A stretch of 64,000 nucleotides of DNA from Candidatus Omnitrophota bacterium. GTDB lineage: Bacteria > Omnitrophota > Gorgyraeia > Gygaellales > Profunditerraquicolaceae. How positions within the stretch are numbered: position 1 is the first letter of the stretch; every line of letters starts with the position of its first letter. The notes under the pieces were generated by a model. The model was not told the origin of the DNA. It saw only the letters and a program-made list of their open reading frames with translations, and did no database searches. This document shows, piece by piece, positions 1-55,065 of this stretch. Position numbers and translations under genes: made by a program. The stretch is from positions 22,043 through 86,042 of the forward strand of contig JAQUOV010000009.1 of assembly GCA_028716965.1 (NCBI GenBank), given 5' to 3'.

Positions 1-1447
1 CGCTCTGGCATATAACCTTGCCGCTATTATCAAATAATATCGCCCTGCCGGTAGACCCGATCTCGAATTTAGAGATTACTTCGGAGAACTTTAAAGTATT
101 GTAAATTGCCTTGCATACGCCGATTAACTCCAAATCCTTGTTATACACCGGAACCGATATGGTAATTGACCAATTCCTGCTTGATTGATCAAACTCCATA
201 TCCCCGATAAAAACATTTCCTTTGCCGGCGTTAAATGTTTTCTGCCACCACCCTTCATCCGCCTGGTAAAAATCACTTGTTTTTTCCGAAGCCACCACCA
301 GGCCGCCGTATCTATCGGTAAAGAATATCTCTACGATATTACCCGTATCAACGATTTTTTTAAGGCGCAGGCTAAGCTGCGTATTGATATATTTATTCAT
401 TTCCGGGCTGCCGGCAGGCAACTGCAGCCACTCCCTATCCTTCTTTGCAAAATATTCCGGCCTATCCTTAACGGGAATCGTAGAATATTTAAGGTTGGCG
501 TCCGCAATAACCGCCCCCCAGATACTTGGGCTTTCCACATAGCTTTCCAGCTTCTTAACCTCGGATTCAATCATCTCGCTGACGGAATCAGACATTAATT
601 GCACCATTGCCTGCTGATTGTTAAAAGTAATTTTCCGCAGCGTAAATACCCCCGATAAATACAGCATCAGCAAGCTGGATGCGAAAATGACCAAACCGAA
701 TAATACCGTAAAGAACAGTACTTTACGCCTGATGCCTCCGACCAGCCGCGCCTTTGCTTTCTCTTTGTAAAAAATACCGGTCATCCCAAAAGCCCCCATG
801 ACCAAAACAACAGCACAGAACATCCTGATAATCTGCACGGGATAGCCGAATATTCTGGTGAAATTAAGATAGTTTATCAGCGACGCCGGGAAAAAATCTG
901 CCTTAGGAACAACCAGTCCTGAAACAACAGCATATATTCCGCTGGCAAGTATAAAAACTGCCGCGCTTAATGAAACCACCTTTGGTAATTCTTTCCTGTA
1001 TAAAAGCATGCGGCTGGACATATCAATTACGATAAGTGTTAAACCCGGGAAGCAAATAAAATAACGCGCCATTATCCCTGCAGTCACTATTCCTTTACCC
1101 GTAGCGTAAGCCAAAGCCCACGGCAACAAACAAATAAAAGGCAAATATCTTAGCCACCTGTATTGCGGATGCCGCTGCGATATATTAAGTATCCCGAATA
1201 TAACTATAAAAGTAAAAGAAACGGGCAACAGGAATGCCCCTATTATGGTAAGCATTTTTGTATCAACCGGCCATTTGGAGAGAATAAACATATCGACCCA
1301 CTCGTTGATGCCATGCAGAACCCCGAATATGGCAAGCGCCCAAAAGTTCTTTAAAATACCGAAGAAATCCTCATTCTTGGGGATAGCGAATAAAATTACC
1401 CCCATAAAGATAAACGCAAAGCCATAAAAGAATAATACCGTTACCAT
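1..1447 (-). CDS. Partial (5' portion in window; C-terminus beyond window start) membrane sensor: N-terminal 7-TM receptor-type domain followed by periplasmic Cache-like domain
   Basis: Manual translation of the minus strand from the ATG at 1445-1447 (MVTVLFFYGFAFIFMGVILFAIPKNEDFFGILKNFWALAIFGVLHGINEW...) stays open to position 1. It has about 7 hydrophobic helices, then a soluble domain (...FFTDRYGGLVVASEKTSDFYQADEGWW...) resembling Cache-type sensor domains. It is not in the ORF track because it is truncated by the window edge. Confidence 0.55.
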   Translation of the reverse strand, partial: MVTVLFFYGFAFIFMGVILFAIPKNEDFFGILKNFWALAIFGVLHGINEWVDMFILSKWPVDTKMLTIIGAFLLPVSFTFIVIFGILNISQRHPQYRWLRYLPFICLLPWALAYATGKGIVTAGIMARYFICFPGLTLIVIDMSSRMLLYRKELPKVVSLSAAVFILASGIYAVVSGLVVPKADFFPASLINYLNFTRIFGYPVQIIRMFCAVVLVMGAFGMTGIFYKEKAKARLVGGIRRKVLFFTVLFGLVIFASSLLMLYLSGVFTLRKITFNNQQAMVQLMSDSVSEMIESEVKKLESYVESPSIWGAVIADANLKYSTIPVKDRPEYFAKKDREWLQLPAGSPEMNKYINTQLSLRLKKIVDTGNIVEIFFTDRYGGLVVASEKTSDFYQADEGWWQKTFNAGKGNVFIGDMEFDQSSRNWSITISVPVYNKDLELIGVCKAIYNTLKFSEVISKFEIGSTGRAILFDNSGKVICQS

Positions 1448-1472: not shown

Positions 1473-3713
1473 TTAACCTTGCCCGACTTTCTTCTCCAGC
1501 TCTTTTATCTGCTTTTTAAGCTCTAATATGCGTTCTTCCCTGCCGATAGAAGCTTTGTAAAAAACCTCCAGCTCATGAAGGTCTTTCTTTAATTTTTGCT
1601 CTGCCTGCTTAAGCTCGGTGATATCGCGGAATGTCCAGATACGCCCAAAGTATTTACCATTTTTATCGATAACTGGCGAAGAATACCTGTCAAAAATCAT
1701 CCCGTTCTTAAATTCTATCTCATCGCGGCTCTTCTCATCTTTATGCTCATAAAGATAGTTTACCTTATCCAGGAACTGCTGCGGGTTCTTTATTTCGTTT
1801 ACCACATACTGCAGAAGTGTTTCATCTTTCTTGTCTTCGGCAATATCTTCCGGCACTCTCCATAGTTCAAGCAGCCGTTTATTAATCAAAATCTTCTGTC
1901 CTTTTTCATCAACGACAAGTAACCCGTCAAGAGAGGCTTCTTTTTGGGCTTCCAGTAACTCCGTTTTCCGTTCCAGGTCATCTTGTATTTTCCTGCTCTC
2001 GGTAATATCGCGGATAATTGCCTGGTAGAATCTTTTCTCACCGATCTTAAAGGCACGCAGGCTGACTTCAACCGGAAATTTTGTTCCGTCCTTACGTTGA
2101 TGCAAGGTATCATATACGGCTTTGCCTGTTGCCTGTACGAGATTAACCTGTTGGGTAAACCTATCTTTTGCCTCCGGCGCGCGTAATTTAGAGGCATGCA
2201 TACCGATTAATTCATTATAGCTATATCCATAAACATCCTGGGCGCGCTCATTGACCTCCAGAAGGATAAAATTCTCATCAAGAAGCATAATGAAGTCATT
2301 GGCATATTTGGTCAAATAACCCAAACGCTCCGCGTATTCCGATATTTTTTTCTTCGCCTGCTGGCGCTCTGTAACATCAAGCCCATAAAGGTTGGCGTAA
2401 CCGGAATCAACAATCGGCGTAACGTAGAAAGAATACATTTGTTCCCCGTGTTCAATATCGCATTGCTGCTCTAAACCGCCCTCTAATGCCTTAGAAACTA
2501 AATCCCGCAATACGGATGGGGCTAACTGCCCGATTTGCAGGTTCCAGTTTGTCAAACGCCTTAATCCGGATTGGTTAATATAAAGAAGCGTGCCGTCCCT
2601 GTTAATACGTAATACCGGATTAGGATCTTCGGCAGGAAACCTCGCCTGGCTTACAATTTCATCCTGATACTGCTTACGCTTGCTAATATTAGAATAAATG
2701 GATACTACGAGACCGGAAGGCAGCTTTAATACATAGTTTTCAGTCCAATGCTCTATACGGCTGTCCTTATAGAGAACACCCGGAAGGTATTCTGATTCGC
2801 CTGTACGCCAGACCCGGCGCAAGACATCCAAGAGGCCGATCTCTGACACCGCCGGGAATGCTTCCGTCACCCTTCTGCCGACAATATCTTCCCGTTTGAC
2901 CTGAGATATCTTTTCCCCCATCTTATTAAGGTTGACAAATACAAAATTTTCCCCTTCGTCAACCGCCTTAAAGATAGCCACTCCGTCTGCTATATTTTCA
3001 AATAAATGCTGGAAGCTTTCTTCGCTATGCTGCAAAGCTATTTTAGATACAGCAAGCCGTATTCTTTCCTGCTCACCTCTGCGTTGAAAGAGTAAAGATG
3101 TTCCCAAAAAGATAAAAATTAACAGGGTAACAAATACCGGCGGGAGAGATTTATAAATAACTGATGCCATCCAGTTACGTGCGTCAATATCCATGCCAAG
3201 CACAGCCAGAAGCCTGCCGTTTTCCGGATTAACAACCGGGACTAATGCGCTTATCCATTTACCCCAGCGGTCGGATACCGGACCTTCAACGGCCTCTACC
3301 TCCTTCGCAAAAACATTCAGCAGTAAGGGAGAAATCTCGGTATATATCTGGCCAGGAGGAGAATAATCCTTGGAATCCTGCGGTTCGGAGTCAACAAAAA
3401 AGAAAACTTCCCCGCTGGGCCGCTGCCCCATCAGATAAGTAAAACGGCATTGCGGGTTGGCAGAACGCGCTAAAGCTAATTGTTCTTTGAGGCGCTGGTA
3501 ATCCGGGGAATCTATATCAGCCTCGGAACCGCTTAAGTTCAAGATATGCCTTATGTTAACAGCCCTCTCCAGCATCCGCGCCTGGACAAGTAATTCTCTG
3601 CGCATACGCCTGTCTTCCAAACGGATGACCACGCCGGTAAACGCTATACTCACAGCCAGGATAATCAAAATCACGATAAATATTATTGTCTTGCTATAAA
3701 TCTTATTTTTCAT
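1473..3713 (-). CDS. Membrane-anchored multi-PAS sensor protein (TM, periplasmic domain, TM, 3-4 PAS domains, C-terminal coiled coil) with no recognisable output domain
   Basis: 746 aa. N-terminal TM helix, a periplasmic domain of about 170 aa, a second TM helix (LPPVFVTLLIFIFLGTSLLF). Repeated PAS-like blocks (…DGVAIFKAVD…, …DFIMLLDENFILLEVNERAQDVYGYSYNELIG…, …DGLLVVDEKGQKILINKRLLELW…, …FGRIWTFRDITELKQAEQ). It ends in a heptad-rich coiled coil and has no HisKA/HATPase, GGDEF, EAL or HD-GYP motif. Confidence 0.75.
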   Translation of the reverse strand: MKNKIYSKTIIFIVILIILAVSIAFTGVVIRLEDRRMRRELLVQARMLERAVNIRHILNLSGSEADIDSPDYQRLKEQLALARSANPQCRFTYLMGQRPSGEVFFFVDSEPQDSKDYSPPGQIYTEISPLLLNVFAKEVEAVEGPVSDRWGKWISALVPVVNPENGRLLAVLGMDIDARNWMASVIYKSLPPVFVTLLIFIFLGTSLLFQRRGEQERIRLAVSKIALQHSEESFQHLFENIADGVAIFKAVDEGENFVFVNLNKMGEKISQVKREDIVGRRVTEAFPAVSEIGLLDVLRRVWRTGESEYLPGVLYKDSRIEHWTENYVLKLPSGLVVSIYSNISKRKQYQDEIVSQARFPAEDPNPVLRINRDGTLLYINQSGLRRLTNWNLQIGQLAPSVLRDLVSKALEGGLEQQCDIEHGEQMYSFYVTPIVDSGYANLYGLDVTERQQAKKKISEYAERLGYLTKYANDFIMLLDENFILLEVNERAQDVYGYSYNELIGMHASKLRAPEAKDRFTQQVNLVQATGKAVYDTLHQRKDGTKFPVEVSLRAFKIGEKRFYQAIIRDITESRKIQDDLERKTELLEAQKEASLDGLLVVDEKGQKILINKRLLELWRVPEDIAEDKKDETLLQYVVNEIKNPQQFLDKVNYLYEHKDEKSRDEIEFKNGMIFDRYSSPVIDKNGKYFGRIWTFRDITELKQAEQKLKKDLHELEVFYKASIGREERILELKKQIKELEKKVGQG

Positions 3714-3721
3714 AATAAACC

Positions 3722-3771
3722 CTAAAAAAACTCAAGCCCGCTTGCGCTTCAGGCGCAAAAAGCTTGAGTTA
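3722..3771 (-). terminator. Intrinsic terminator-like hairpin plus U7 tract ending 10 nt upstream of the PAS sensor gene start (attenuator-like)
   Basis: Minus-strand RNA reads AACUCAAGC-UUUUUGCGCCUGAAGCGCAAGCGG-GCUUGAGUU followed by UUUUUUU. The outer stem is 9 bp with a nested 6-bp stem. It lies between the 4018 gene and the ATG at 3713. Confidence 0.6.
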
Positions 3772-4017
3772 AAGATTACATTATGCAAGGGCGTTACTCT
3801 TATCCAAATGAGCCATCTTCACCCCGTATTGAGTAACTATTATTAATTATTAATATATCATATAGGCTGCGCTTATCAAGACGTTTTATATATCTGCGCA
3901 GGCTCCTTGGAGTTATGAAATAATTATTTTACAAACGGAATGCTGGGGGCCCCAACTCCATGGTTAAAATACCCGCAGCTTCAGAAACCTGCAGAAAATC
4001 TCCTGGTAAGATTGCTT

Positions 4018-4440
4018 TCATTCTATTTCTCCCAACAAGCCGGAGATTTCGCTTTGTATGTAATCAGAGAGTTCTGCTTTATTTTCGGCGTATTCAATAA
4101 TCTTATCAAGATCTTTCCATTTTACCTCTTTGCCGCTTTTGACTAACGACAGGATAAGAGTCTTGGCGCAAACCTTATAATAACCCGCATAATACCCCTC
4201 CCCGTTATTCCCCAAGATTACAACCTGAAACTCCAATTTTCCCGAAGCCAGGGCACCCTTAAATTCAGTTTCTATCGCTTCCTTGCAGTTTCTCTCCAGA
4301 TCACGGCAACTCGGACTGCGGGATGTACCGCGAAAATAATACACTATAACTTTACCGCTTGGTTGATTATCTGCACAAAGAGGGGAAATAAAATCAAGGC
4401 TAACCCAAACAATAAAAAAAATCAAGAATATTCTTTTCAT
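4018..4440 (-). CDS. Secreted hypothetical protein (signal peptide, three Cys)
   Basis: N-terminal MKRIFLIFFIVWVSLDFISPLCA signal-peptide-like segment. It sits 5 nt downstream of the ArsP-like permease and is probably co-transcribed with it. Confidence 0.5.
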   Translation of the reverse strand: MKRIFLIFFIVWVSLDFISPLCADNQPSGKVIVYYFRGTSRSPSCRDLERNCKEAIETEFKGALASGKLEFQVVILGNNGEGYYAGYYKVCAKTLILSLVKSGKEVKWKDLDKIIEYAENKAELSDYIQSEISGLLGEIE

Positions 4441-5856: not shown

Positions 5857-5906
5857 TTATGAACATATGTTCATAACAATTCTAACACAACCTTCTCCGT
5901 TGTCAA
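5857..5906 (-). promoter_or_regulatory. Sigma70-like promoter (TTGACA-16-TAGAAT) with a perfect 20-bp palindrome TTATGAACATATGTTCATAA immediately downstream of the -10 and upstream of the DUF134 #1 RBS
   Basis: Read on the minus strand: TTGACA (5901-5906), 16-nt spacer, TAGAAT (5879-5884), then the palindrome at 5857-5876, then AAGGAG-N9-TTG start. Confidence 0.5.
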
Positions 5907-19683: not shown

Positions 19684-21981
19684 CTAAGTTATATTCTTTA
19701 AAGCAACCAGCTCGTTAATGATATTAGCGGCCCAGCGGTAAATATTATTTTCAGCTATAACCTTTCGCATATTTTCCATACGCCTCTGCTTTTCTTCTTT
19801 CGGCATCTCGATCGCAAGTTTTATGCTGTCCGCAAACTCCTCGATAGAATAGGGGTTGACTAAGATGGCATCGGTAAGCTCACGGGAGGCGCCGGTAAAC
19901 TGGCTTAAGATCAGGGCCCCGGATAAATCATCCTTCTCTGCCACATATTCTTTAGCCACCAGGTTCATCCCATCATGCAGGGAACTGACAATACAAATAT
20001 CACCAAGCTTATAATAAGGATGGATGTCATCCTGGGAAAAATGTTTTTTAAGGTAGATTATCGGCTTCCAATTCCCGTCTATATGCTTCCAGTTAATCCT
20101 CTCCACCAGCTCGTCAATCTCCCCGCTTAAATCATGGTAACGTTTGATATGCGTACGGCTTGGAGCGGCCAACTGCATAAACACAAATTTCTTTTTATAT
20201 TCAGGATACTTCTCCAGAAACCTGTCTATAGCCAAGATCCTCTCGACTATTCCCTTAGTGTAATCAATCCTGTCTACGCCCACAGCAATAATCTCATCCT
20301 TGAGCTCAAACTCTTTCTTCAGCTTTTCCACCTGCCTTATCGGGTCAACCTTAAATGAACCATCATCAATATGGGCTTTAATGCTTATGGGGAAAGCCCT
20401 GATAAAAGTCTCTTTCCCTAAACGCACGACACTGAATTTCTCTGTGTCTACGCGTGATTCAAGCAGGCGGTTGGCAGTATCAAGAAAATTATTACAATGA
20501 TTTTGTACATGAAAACCGATCAAATCGCATCCCAGCATACCTTCCAGGATTTCATTTTGGTAGGGGCAGATCATAAAAGCCTCCGGAGTAGGCCAGGGGA
20601 TGTGCCAGAATAAGGCAATTTTTGCATCCGGGCGCTTATCTTTTATCATCTTCGGCAAGAGAGTAAAATGATAATCCTGCACAAATATAAAAGGGCTGCT
20701 TGCCGGCAGCTCCTCCAAAACACTATCGGCAAACTTCTGGTTTACTTCCTTATACATGCGCCAGTCAAACTCCCTGAAAACAGGGCGAGTATGCGTATTA
20801 TGGCATAAAGGCCACAGGCCTTCATTTGAGAAACCGTAATAATACCCCTGCTCCTCCTCTTTATTCAACCAAACCCTTTTCAGGATATAGCGGTTATCTT
20901 CCGGCGGCACGCCAAGCTTATCTTTAGAATTAACGAATTTCCTGTCGAAGTTGCCGCTGCCGCTAGCAACCCATGTGCCGCCGCAGGCGGAAAGTATGGG
21001 ATGGAGTGCAGTAACCACTCCGCTTGCCGGCCTTATGCATATAGGCTTGCTCGTGCTCTCATCAAAAATATGCATATACGGCTCCCTGTTGGAAACAACG
21101 AATAATGAATTATCTCCCAACTTTGCGTGGATGAGGTCTTTGAGCTTGGATTCTGTCCAAAGCTCCTCCTTCTGCAGGCGTACATGTGCTTCATCGGATA
21201 TGGTACGGCGGGCCACCCTTATGCTTAAAGCTACCTGCTCTACTTCACTAATAAGCTTTCCAAATTCCCCTTTTTCTTGAAAAGGCTGTAATTTATCAAT
21301 CTCCCCTCTCTGGAAATGCTTAAACCATTGGGTCAGGCGGCGCACGGGAACGATAAAAATCTGCCTCTGGATTAACAGGGCGATCAAGACGATCAACAAA
21401 ATAAGCGTTATGGAGGTTACGCTTATTTTCCTCCATAATTCAGTTAAGGTAGCAAACATGTAAGAGGTATCATAAATTACCTCCACCATCCCTAATACGT
21501 TTCCTTCATCATCCAGAACGGGCAAAATATAACTATATACGGAATATTCTTTAAATTTCTCCAAAGCTCCGCGGGGCTTCTTCAAAGACAGGATATCCTT
21601 AAGATAGGGCCTGTCTCTCTGTTTAAAGTCAGAAAAACGTTCGGTAATAGCTAATATCTGACCGTCCTTATCATAAATGACGCAGCCCTGCAGCCTTTCC
21701 CTTTTCTGGAAACTATCGACTAAACGGTTGGCTTGCTTTAAATCGTTATTAATAAGTATATATTTGGCGGATAATTCCAGGCTTTCATCCACAGACCTGG
21801 CTTTTCTTTTCAGATCATCCATCAGCTTGTCTTCGGTAAAACGGGCCTGCATAATACCCGAGATAGCGAATCCAAGCGCAACCAGGATTAATATCGGAAG
21901 GATAAAAAGAAGGATTCTTTTCATTAATTGATCTCCAAAAAACAGCCACCTGATTATTAAATCAGATGGCGGCCCAACCAT
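19684..21981 (-). CDS. otsA: Sensor-fused trehalose-6-phosphate synthase: TM, Cache-like periplasmic domain, TM, HAMP, OtsA (GT20)
   Basis: The C-terminal 480 aa or so carries GT20 OtsA motifs (LWPLCH, FWHIPWP, DLIGFH, VDRIDYTKG, SLHDGMNLVAKEY). The N-terminal 280 aa has two TM helices flanking a Cache-like segment (YSYILPVLDDEGNVLGMVEVIYD) and a HAMP-like helix. The likely true start is the Met at about 21924 (GGAG RBS, MKRILLFILPILIL). The first 19 codons of the track ORF are probably not translated. Confidence 0.85.
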   Translation of the reverse strand: MVGPPSDLIIRWLFFGDQLMKRILLFILPILILVALGFAISGIMQARFTEDKLMDDLKRKARSVDESLELSAKYILINNDLKQANRLVDSFQKRERLQGCVIYDKDGQILAITERFSDFKQRDRPYLKDILSLKKPRGALEKFKEYSVYSYILPVLDDEGNVLGMVEVIYDTSYMFATLTELWRKISVTSITLILLIVLIALLIQRQIFIVPVRRLTQWFKHFQRGEIDKLQPFQEKGEFGKLISEVEQVALSIRVARRTISDEAHVRLQKEELWTESKLKDLIHAKLGDNSLFVVSNREPYMHIFDESTSKPICIRPASGVVTALHPILSACGGTWVASGSGNFDRKFVNSKDKLGVPPEDNRYILKRVWLNKEEEQGYYYGFSNEGLWPLCHNTHTRPVFREFDWRMYKEVNQKFADSVLEELPASSPFIFVQDYHFTLLPKMIKDKRPDAKIALFWHIPWPTPEAFMICPYQNEILEGMLGCDLIGFHVQNHCNNFLDTANRLLESRVDTEKFSVVRLGKETFIRAFPISIKAHIDDGSFKVDPIRQVEKLKKEFELKDEIIAVGVDRIDYTKGIVERILAIDRFLEKYPEYKKKFVFMQLAAPSRTHIKRYHDLSGEIDELVERINWKHIDGNWKPIIYLKKHFSQDDIHPYYKLGDICIVSSLHDGMNLVAKEYVAEKDDLSGALILSQFTGASRELTDAILVNPYSIEEFADSIKLAIEMPKEEKQRRMENMRKVIAENNIYRWAANIINELVALKNIT

Positions 21982-22099
21982 CTTAAAAATTACCTCCGGA
22001 GACTATAGGCTATCTCCAGACCGCTTATTAATCTGTATTTATTATACTACTTTCAATTAATACCTCAAGAGGTATCTTGGATTATAGGTAATTACAGTA

Positions 22100-54969: not shown

Positions 54970-55002
54970 AAAAAACCGCCTTCTACCTTCGTAGATGGCG
55001 GC
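54970..55002 (-). terminator. Intrinsic terminator (GCCGCCAUCUAC…GUAGAAGGCGG plus U6) located 30 nt upstream of the hflK start and downstream of the 14-codon upstream ORF
   Basis: The stem has one mismatch and is followed by UUUUUU. It also serves as the terminator for the GT4 gene. Confidence 0.5.
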
Positions 55003-55020
55003 CCGACCATCAGATTGCCT

Positions 55021-55065
55021 TCAGAAATACAAATTATCTCTGAACCCAAAATATTTTATTTTCAT
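55021..55065 (-). CDS. Candidate 14-aa leader peptide MKIKYFGFRDNLYF with an AAGAGGAG RBS
   Basis: ATG at 55063-55065 preceded by AAGAGGAG. 5 of 14 residues are Phe or Tyr. It sits between a sigma70-like promoter and the terminator. Confidence 0.3.
   Translation of the reverse strand: MKIKYFGFRDNLYF

Follow-up and report, generated by a model that had tools for sequence, protein, structure and literature searches.

A putative translation-linked transcription attenuator in front of a PAS sensor operon of Omnitrophota

How is a signal-transduction operon expressed when a strong terminator-like hairpin stands directly before its first gene? This question is raised by the minus strand of a 64,000-nucleotide stretch of contig JAQUOV010000009.1 (assembly GCA_028716965.1; hereafter the window) from a member of Omnitrophota, a phylum whose bacteria are very small, for the most part uncultivated and in part predators or parasites. 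The gene in question encodes a PAS sensor protein; a spacer of 304 nucleotides (nt) separates its start codon (ATG at 3713) from the end, at 4018, of an upstream gene for a protein of 140 amino acids (aa). The answer that we tentatively favour, with a little less than even confidence, is that the spacer carries a promoter-proximal transcription attenuator of the operon for the PAS protein, a dCache-type histidine kinase and a response regulator, working most likely through translation of a mini open reading frame (mini-ORF) in the leader.

The hairpin itself can be read directly. Minus-strand positions 3770–3729 are AACTCAAGC-TTT-TTGCGC-CTGAA-GCGCAA-GCGG-GCTTGAGTT, for which ViennaRNA predicted one nearly continuous stem of 17 base pairs (bp) with one bulge and a free energy of −22.1 kcal/mol; the U7 tract that follows ends 10 nt before the PAS ATG. 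Both the reading and the fold bear out the nested hairpin with U7 tract that an earlier note on this DNA had placed at this distance from the gene. The position of the ATG is set by an in-frame TGA (3734–3732) and by the N-termini of orthologs (MKNK...). We scanned the whole window for hairpins ending at a T-run and compared the outcome with 10 dinucleotide shuffles. Among 149 candidates this hairpin was the fifth strongest and had the longest U-tract; candidates at or below −18 kcal/mol numbered 11 in the real sequence versus 0–9 (mean 3.9) in the shuffles. A packaged terminator scan skipped the hairpin, as its nested stem exceeds the loop and stem model of that tool.

Conservation was followed in nine leaders, those of the window and of eight orthologous Omnitrophota loci (L001, L002, L037, L047, L049, L050, L051 and L052; L037 is identical to L040 and L053). 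The loci were gathered by a scan of a genome collection with the protein, by one DNA-pattern scan of metagenomes and by look-ups of the closest protein homologs. The metagenome scan returned 12 matches, and only L037, L040 and L042 proved to be true loci, two of them sharing one sequence and one being the L002 contig; the other nine were dismissed as chance matches in G+C-rich coding DNA. The orthologous PAS proteins are 63–68% identical to that of the window. Leader identity to the window is 72–84% over aligned positions, against 46–57% at four-fold degenerate sites of the adjacent gene, and since the former exceeds the latter, the comparison indicates that the leader is under purifying selection.

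Pairing in the hairpin is kept as well: 93% of the terminator cells of the nine-leader alignment are paired, versus 24–54% with slid partners, and the RNAalifold consensus of the leaders retains the terminator. A run of 4–7 T directly follows the hairpin in all nine, with further T after the shorter runs. Substitutions are mostly one-sided (G-C to G-U), and covariation is weak and not significant among nine leaders. The unpaired parts of the hairpin (CAAG-NNGG-CTTG) are also conserved in sequence, beyond what pairing needs. With a stable G+C-containing stem-loop, a U-tract and pairing kept in relatives, the element has the sequence features of an intrinsic (Rho-independent) terminator. A covariance model made from the nine leaders found one copy in the window (101 bits); neither the model nor motif searches found a second copy there or in unrelated loci.

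Weaker matches to the model were observed at the orthologous position of two more distant loci, L048 (26 bits, E about 0.01) and L003 (17.6 bits, E about 0.9). L048 has nearly the same inner stem (CTTGTGC...GCGCAAG) and a U-rich tail just before the ribosome-binding site (RBS), and its hairpin starts 12 nt after the stop codon of another PAS gene, with no promoter or motif there. In L003 an unrelated nested hairpin with U6 lies 17 nt before the ATG, and an ORF stops 1 nt before that hairpin. The element is missing from the Velamenicoccus loci L005 and L006 and from further homologs, where the gene directly follows a response-regulator gene. A different arrangement was seen in L004, the locus of a 48%-identical ortholog: a 74-codon ORF with its own promoter (TTGACT-N17-TAGAAT) fills the space before the sensor (3734–3958), overlaps the sensor start (ATGA) and contains a hairpin with T6.

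Where would transcription of the leader begin? A sigma70-type promoter with an extended −10 element lies inside the spacer (Table 1); it scored 10/12 with TG and was the second-best site in 12 kb in our promoter scan. All nine leaders keep it, with TTGATA or TTGCTA, with TATATT, TAAAAT or TACATT, with a spacer of 16–17 nt and with an invariant TG, and by sequence (hexamers, 16–18-nt spacer, TGn) it qualifies as a sigma70 promoter of the extended −10 kind. Because this conserved promoter sits within the 304-nt spacer, the predicted leader is shortened from the 300 nt of the earlier note to ~120–125 nt, only ~75 nt of which precede the terminator. The same scan found no promoter-like site between 3852 and 3713, in line with the former argument that there is no room for a promoter between terminator and ATG. 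As the conserved terminator abuts the RBS of the PAS gene, leaving no room for another promoter, it is well supported that transcription of the PAS operon has to read through the terminator, that is, that the layout is that of an attenuator. This had been proposed for the window, and the eight other orthologous loci reinforce it. The upstream neighbour varies among the loci in which it is legible: the 140-aa gene in the window, a CstA-family gene in L047, an SBF-like gene in L052 and PhoU in L049 and L050. Promoter, leader and terminator align throughout while the upstream genes differ, and for this reason the element is to be assigned, on comparative grounds, to the PAS operon rather than to the gene upstream of it.

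The 5′ part of the leader is A/U-rich and weakly structured, and carries a conserved 13-nt motif, GGGGTGAAGATGG, which resembles a Shine–Dalgarno (SD) sequence plus start codon and not an anti-SD seed. In 9/9 leaders an ATG stands at the same alignment column, with a 5-nt spacer and, before that, a G-run (GGGG, GGAG or AGGG) at constant position, and the substitutions keep the SD character; such a G-run is able to pair with the canonical anti-SD sequence at the 3′ end of 16S rRNA. The region of the ATG is mostly unpaired in the predicted fold of the window leader. The ATG opens a mini-ORF of 11–13 codons in all nine leaders. Beyond SD and ATG, the mini-ORF diverges freely between clades and the peptide is not conserved: that of the window is given in Table 1, the short leader forms described below have M[V/I/A][S/C]FYTQAFCV (11 codons), and L049 and L050 have MIKANIRRCPYLA and MIKANKRKCPYLV (13 codons). 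The sole conserved nucleotide block within the mini-ORF, GCCCTT, does not have the same reading frame in L049/L050 as in the window. Given the divergent peptide and conserved nucleotides in differing frames, we ruled out a functional micropeptide; if the mini-ORF matters, the act of translation would be what counts.

The leaders come in two forms: a long one (window, L049 and L050) and a short one (the other six) with a deletion of 32–34 nt. The mini-ORF ends ahead of the stem in the long form, at a distance of 11 nt in the window and of 7 nt in L049 and L050; in the six short forms it extends over the full 5′ arm to a TGA stop in the terminator loop. Together with L048 (12 nt) and L003 (1 nt), ORF stops thus recur at or in the hairpin, which points to interplay between ribosome and terminator. 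The long forms have a further feature. In 3/3 of them the G-run (GGGGUG or AGGGUA) can form a 6-bp helix with CGCCCU or UGYCCU, a partner ~27 nt away inside the ORF; one of its changes is compensatory (G-C to A-U) and two are one-sided, which makes essentially one independent comparison, so that the helix is no more than suggestive. Conservation of CGCCCT is at the RNA level, because its frame differs between L049/L050 and the window. The deletion in the short forms removed one strand of this helix and kept the rest of the leader. By parsimony the long form would be ancestral, as the window is the outgroup in protein identity (63–68% to all, versus 69–72% between L049/L050 and the short forms).

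From these features the following mechanism may be composed. Transcription would start at the extended −10 promoter and give a leader of ~120 nt with an RBS and, in the window, an 11-codon mini-ORF. Most transcripts would stop at the terminator, and the operon would be made by read-through only. A ribosome at the mini-ORF stop, 7–11 nt before the stem or in the loop, would keep the base of the hairpin open and so let RNA polymerase read through; in the long form, the GGGGUG:CGCCCU pairing would limit how often the mini-ORF is translated. For translation to be coupled to read-through, a pause of RNA polymerase would be needed as well. What the sequences show is the terminator, the promoter consensus and the SD with its ATG, all of them conserved and linked to the PAS operon; where transcription starts, that it really ends at the terminator, that the mini-ORF is translated and that its translation governs read-through are inferred. 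A precedent for the central step exists in Escherichia coli, where termination fell from about 90% to under 10% when a stop codon was placed 5 bp before the terminator (PMC4824070).

Several points weigh against this reading. The authors of the E. coli study put at 10–15 nt the free RNA that must separate the hairpin from the ribosomal A site, so the window stop codon, 11 nt from the stem, is at the edge of ribosome reach; a terminator 30 bp past the start codon kept most of its efficiency; and within about 100 nt the first ribosome does not draw level with an RNA polymerase that makes no pause (PMC4824070). The mini-ORF ATG is only 60–92 nt from the U-tract, and no pause signal is evident. 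In none of the nine leaders does the mini-ORF contain a regulatory codon run or a common stalling peptide. The nine leaders, moreover, fall into only three clades, with negligible covariation, and the window leader has no antiterminator (see below). Of the marks of a leader-peptide attenuator, this family appears to have a short ORF with SD and start codon and a terminator within ribosome reach, and to lack regulatory codons and, in the window, an antiterminator.

Table 1. Coordinates of the leader, its operon and adjacent features in the window
Feature	Position	Strand	Remarks
Next gene, start of membrane dCache-type histidine kinase	1..1447	-	Frame-2 translation; runs off the left window end
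PAS sensor gene (746 aa), with which the controlled operon begins	1473..3713	-	ORF list; Pfam matches PAS_9, PAS_4, PAS_8, PAS_7
AGGG, RBS of the PAS gene	3720..3723	-	Direct reading; spaced 6 nt from the ATG
U7 tract of the terminator	3724..3730	-	Direct reading
Predicted leader transcript, ~120–125 nt	3724..3848	-	Start near 3848–3844, extends to the U-tract; placed from the promoter position
Intrinsic-terminator hairpin, 40–42 nt	3729..3770	-	Outer stem ACTCAAGC/GCTTGAGT, inner stem TTGCGC/GCGCAA
Mini-ORF, 11 codons plus stop, MAHLDKSNALA*	3781..3816	-	ATG invariant in 9/9 leaders
CGCCCT, anti-SD-like partner of the G-run	3788..3793	-	Long-form leaders only
SD-like G-run GGGGTG	3820..3825	-	5 nt before the mini-ORF ATG
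Sigma70-type promoter	3852..3879	-	−35 TTGATA 3879–3874, 16-nt spacer, extended −10 TG-n-TATATT (TG 3860–3859, hexamer 3857–3852)
Conserved block upstream of the promoter, AATTATTTCATAACTCCAAGG	3905..3925	-	Aligns with AATTGTTTTATAACCTCAAGG in L001, L002, L037, L047, L051, L052
GC-rich hairpin GTTGGGGCCCCCAGC, 3′ region of the upstream operon, outside the leader	3942..3956	-	Terminator-like, weak T tail; 62 nt past the stop at 4018

The earlier note had left attenuation and riboswitch control side by side, and had suggested that mutually exclusive terminator and antiterminator folds be sought by structure prediction. Each leader was folded with the terminator 3′ arm blocked, and as nascent RNA. 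In the window leader the 5′ arm found no upstream partner when the 3′ arm was blocked (−16.5 kcal/mol, with −15.1 for the nascent RNA and −37.4 for the full fold), and an exclusive fold was seen in the short forms only, where it is weak. In these six leaders a small hairpin, GUGAAGAU/GUUUUUAC, can be extended, with the G-run pairing to ACUC and CAAAA pairing to UUUUG of the 5′ arm; the alternative reaches −9 to −13 kcal/mol versus −16 to −20 for the terminator, and it does not occur in the ancestral form.

An Rfam 15 search of the leaders of the window, L049 and L001 at E<=10 gave only chance matches far below the gathering scores, and the whole window at the gathering threshold gave nothing for the leader, so the statement that no known class could be assigned stands. 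RNAalifold revealed no conserved multi-helix aptamer among the leaders, giving only the terminator and a weak 5-bp hairpin; the sole conserved upstream helix is the one formed by the G-run and CGCCCU, found in three sequences and lost from six. With no Rfam match, no multi-helix fold and no antiterminator in the window, neither a riboswitch nor a trp-type attenuator is supported at the level of sequence and predicted structure. The attenuator half of the former proposal is upheld by layout and conservation, and its riboswitch half is not.

Several other pairings were considered and set aside. Pairing of GCCCUUGC with the terminator 3′ arm (GCAAG..GGC) fits the window and was ruled out by anti-compensatory differences in L049/L050. 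A 7-bp helix, GUUACUC/GAGUAAC, in the minimum-energy fold of the window is not conserved, its columns in L049 and L050 being non-complementary. A window fold of 3700–4030 extends the terminator stem onto the PAS RBS and ATG, and a longer fold pairs GCCCU with AGGGU of the PAS gene; sequestration of the PAS RBS/ATG in the read-through RNA was nevertheless rejected, since the unpaired probabilities follow no pattern across orthologs.

The searches of the window returned in addition two matches to the nhaA-I RNA (RF03057, a Na+ riboswitch class), both on the minus strand, at 54993–55047 (50.5 bits) and 21964–22023 (37.7 bits; gathering score 37). Within about 20 nt after each of them comes a strong hairpin with a T-run (candidates at 54976 and 21944 in the hairpin scan). 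As both precede strong terminator-like hairpins, this organism appears to exercise control by terminators in its 5′ leaders, a point in favour of the attenuator.

What else could the conserved promoter, leader and terminator be? The short transcript might itself be the product, a small RNA of ~95–125 nt or the mRNA of a tiny peptide, with the PAS operon expressed at a low constitutive level by leakage of the terminator. A near-consensus conserved promoter feeding a strong terminator would indeed be wasteful if the aim were only low expression of the operon, and the A/U-rich 5′ part with its 13-nt motif, followed by hairpin and U-tail, is typical small-RNA anatomy, the element having what looks like a promoter and a terminator that belong to it and, between them, a conserved stretch that is accessible. 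RNAs derived from 5′ untranslated regions (5′ UTRs) by premature termination can be trans-acting sponges (PMC7815308), and with a leader of this length a ribosome would probably not draw level with the polymerase (PMC4824070). Yet in all nine genomes the element is fixed right before one and the same operon, where a second promoter would not fit, the window has a single copy of it, its motif has the look of SD plus start codon rather than of an anti-SD seed, and L048 retains the hairpin and U-tract right after another gene with neither promoter nor motif. On balance we hold a free-standing product to be unlikely, if still the strongest competitor. Attenuation might also be conditional on a factor acting in trans on the G-rich motif or the hairpin, be it an RNA-binding protein, a small RNA or a small-molecule ligand, the last of which would make the leader a new riboswitch. 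Conservation of the motif and of CAAG-NNGG-CTTG beyond pairing is what one would expect of such a binding site, and the alternative fold of the short forms into the 5′ arm would offer a switch. Against a factor of this kind stand the blank Rfam search of three representatives, the lack of a multi-helix fold with covariation, the ancestral long form (window included) with no upstream pairing to the terminator 5′ arm, the tolerated deletion of 32–34 nt and the anti-compensatory changes in L050 in the pairing between GCCCUU and the terminator 3′ arm. We saw no gene for an ANTAR or PRD-type antiterminator, the response regulators of the operon matching Response_reg only, although regulators encoded elsewhere are possible; nor did the predicted folds contain tandem short hairpins overlapping the 5′ arm (ANTAR or RAT type). 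We consider control by a trans-acting factor quite unlikely. A slim chance is left for a broader interpretation, in which promoter, G-rich motif and terminator make up an undescribed riboregulator family that is confined to one Omnitrophota lineage and gates a sensor-kinase operon. It might sense a ligand or protein via the invariant GGGGUGAAGAUGG region, or be a dual-function element whose terminated product, being abundant, acts in trans on the two-component circuit to which it belongs, as a small RNA or sponge, while read-through sets the level of the sensor proteins.

Two further explanations deny that the hairpin is a terminator of its own operon. It could be an mRNA element, a stabilising 5′ stem or a modulator of PAS translation, as one might gather from L048 and L003, where a hairpin directly before the RBS is kept despite a different upstream context. 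Every stem has a T-rich tract behind it, as a terminator should, and predicted sequestration of the PAS RBS/ATG is inconsistent across orthologs; we regard this explanation as improbable. Or it could merely end the upstream operon, which encodes a DUF134 regulator, a permease and the 140-aa protein and runs on the same strand. The hairpin lies 285 nt past the stop of that operon, beyond another hairpin and a conserved promoter, and in orthologs the element accompanies the PAS gene even though the upstream genes differ. With the comparative data thus speaking against it, termination of the upstream operon as its sole role has next to no chance of being right. Translation-linked attenuation therefore remains the reading that we prefer, with the reservations given above.

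The region upstream of the promoter has features of its own. The palindromes GGGGCCCCC (3953–3945) and CTGCGCAG (3901–3894) had been put forward as alternative structures of the leader; both lie upstream of the promoter, outside the transcript, and so cannot have this role, and both are absent from orthologs. GGGGCCCCC is part of the GC-rich hairpin that follows the upstream operon's stop codon (Table 1); this hairpin is missing from the orthologous loci, whose upstream genes differ, and most plausibly belongs to the upstream operon (DUF134 regulator, ArsP-type permease, 140-aa protein). We also observed a near-consensus promoter (TTGACA, 16-nt spacer, TAGAAT with TG; 11/12) just upstream of the DUF134 gene, at 5906–5879 on the minus strand, which suggests that the DUF134 gene, the ArsP-type permease gene and the gene of the 140-aa secreted protein belong to a single operon, with the GGGGCCCCC hairpin as its end.

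Closer to the promoter, the conserved block AATTATTTCATAACTCCAAGG could be a regulator-binding or UP-like element. In several orthologous loci a palindrome with arms of 16–18 bp, GGTTAYAAAACAATTAC-N14-GTAATTGTTTTATAACC, is located about −50 to −100 from the leader promoter (L002 ~3775–3830, L051 1–50, L052 ~1435–1490, L053 ~55–95), and in these four loci the counterpart of the block is its right arm. In the window, L001 and L047 only this promoter-proximal arm is conserved. The palindrome could be an operator for a regulator or the terminator of an upstream gene.

The PAS protein of the window is identical to an NCBI protein (P0001) of a Candidatus Omnitrophica metagenome-assembled genome; it has an N-terminal membrane/periplasmic region and several PAS domains, and is without an output domain. 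In L047, L049, L050 and L053 the PAS gene is followed by a kinase gene (dCache_1-HAMP-HisKA-HATPase_c) and then by a gene for a receiver-only response regulator. The length of the PAS protein differs by clade (746 aa in the window, 626 aa in L049/L050, 496 aa in the short-leader clade); in all clades it lacks an output domain and a separate dCache histidine kinase is always next. The PAS genes of orthologs have GAGG or GAGGG 7–10 nt before the ATG. Along the window the plus strand has a negative GC skew in each 2-kb bin, and the strong terminator-like hairpins are mostly those of the minus strand, which fits transcription almost wholly from the minus strand.

Among known systems, one that comes close is the leader of the E. 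coli pyrBI operon, a ribosome-coupled attenuator that does not sense an amino acid and in which attenuation depends on polymerase pausing sensitive to uridine triphosphate (UTP). In both, a short leader ORF runs up to or into a terminator ahead of the first structural gene, and in both it would be the ribosome, and no antiterminator helix, that keeps the hairpin from closing. Unlike in pyrBI, no pause signal or nucleotide link is evident in the window leader, the leader ORF of this family is much shorter (11–13 codons) and the genes serve signal transduction. Pausing of RNA polymerase at pyrBI is what lets the ribosome catch up (PMC4824070). The order of promoter, SD, short upstream ORF (uORF), terminator and gene is shared with the trp, his and leu attenuators and with the antibiotic-responsive uORF attenuators known from Term-seq. 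Leaders of these kinds alternate between mutually exclusive terminator and antiterminator folds, as is expected of conditional terminators, and contain diagnostic codons or stalling peptides (PMC5314783), whereas the window leader has no antiterminator, codon run or conserved peptide. The 5′ UTR-derived small RNAs of E. coli (PMC7815308) are similar in being short, in sharing a promoter with the downstream operon and in ending at a terminator in the 5′ UTR, a role in trans being putative here. Transcriptional riboswitches, such as nhaA-I in the window, likewise have an intrinsic terminator immediately upstream of the regulated gene; the window leader differs from them in having no aptamer, Rfam match, multi-stem architecture or terminator/antiterminator alternative.

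The element is best described, on comparative sequence evidence, as a lineage-restricted leader/attenuator family, unclassified and of a known general kind. To our knowledge, almost nothing is known about gene regulation in Omnitrophota. Here a signal-transduction operon (PAS protein, dCache kinase, response regulator) stands behind a strong terminator that is fed by a strong promoter. If read-through is conditional, this would add an extra regulatory layer upstream of a two-component system. If the preferred reading is true, attenuation would respond to the act of translation and not to an amino-acid or antibiotic signal, since the peptide is not conserved. The architecture is a familiar one, and the element is small enough for direct study with a reporter in a heterologous host.

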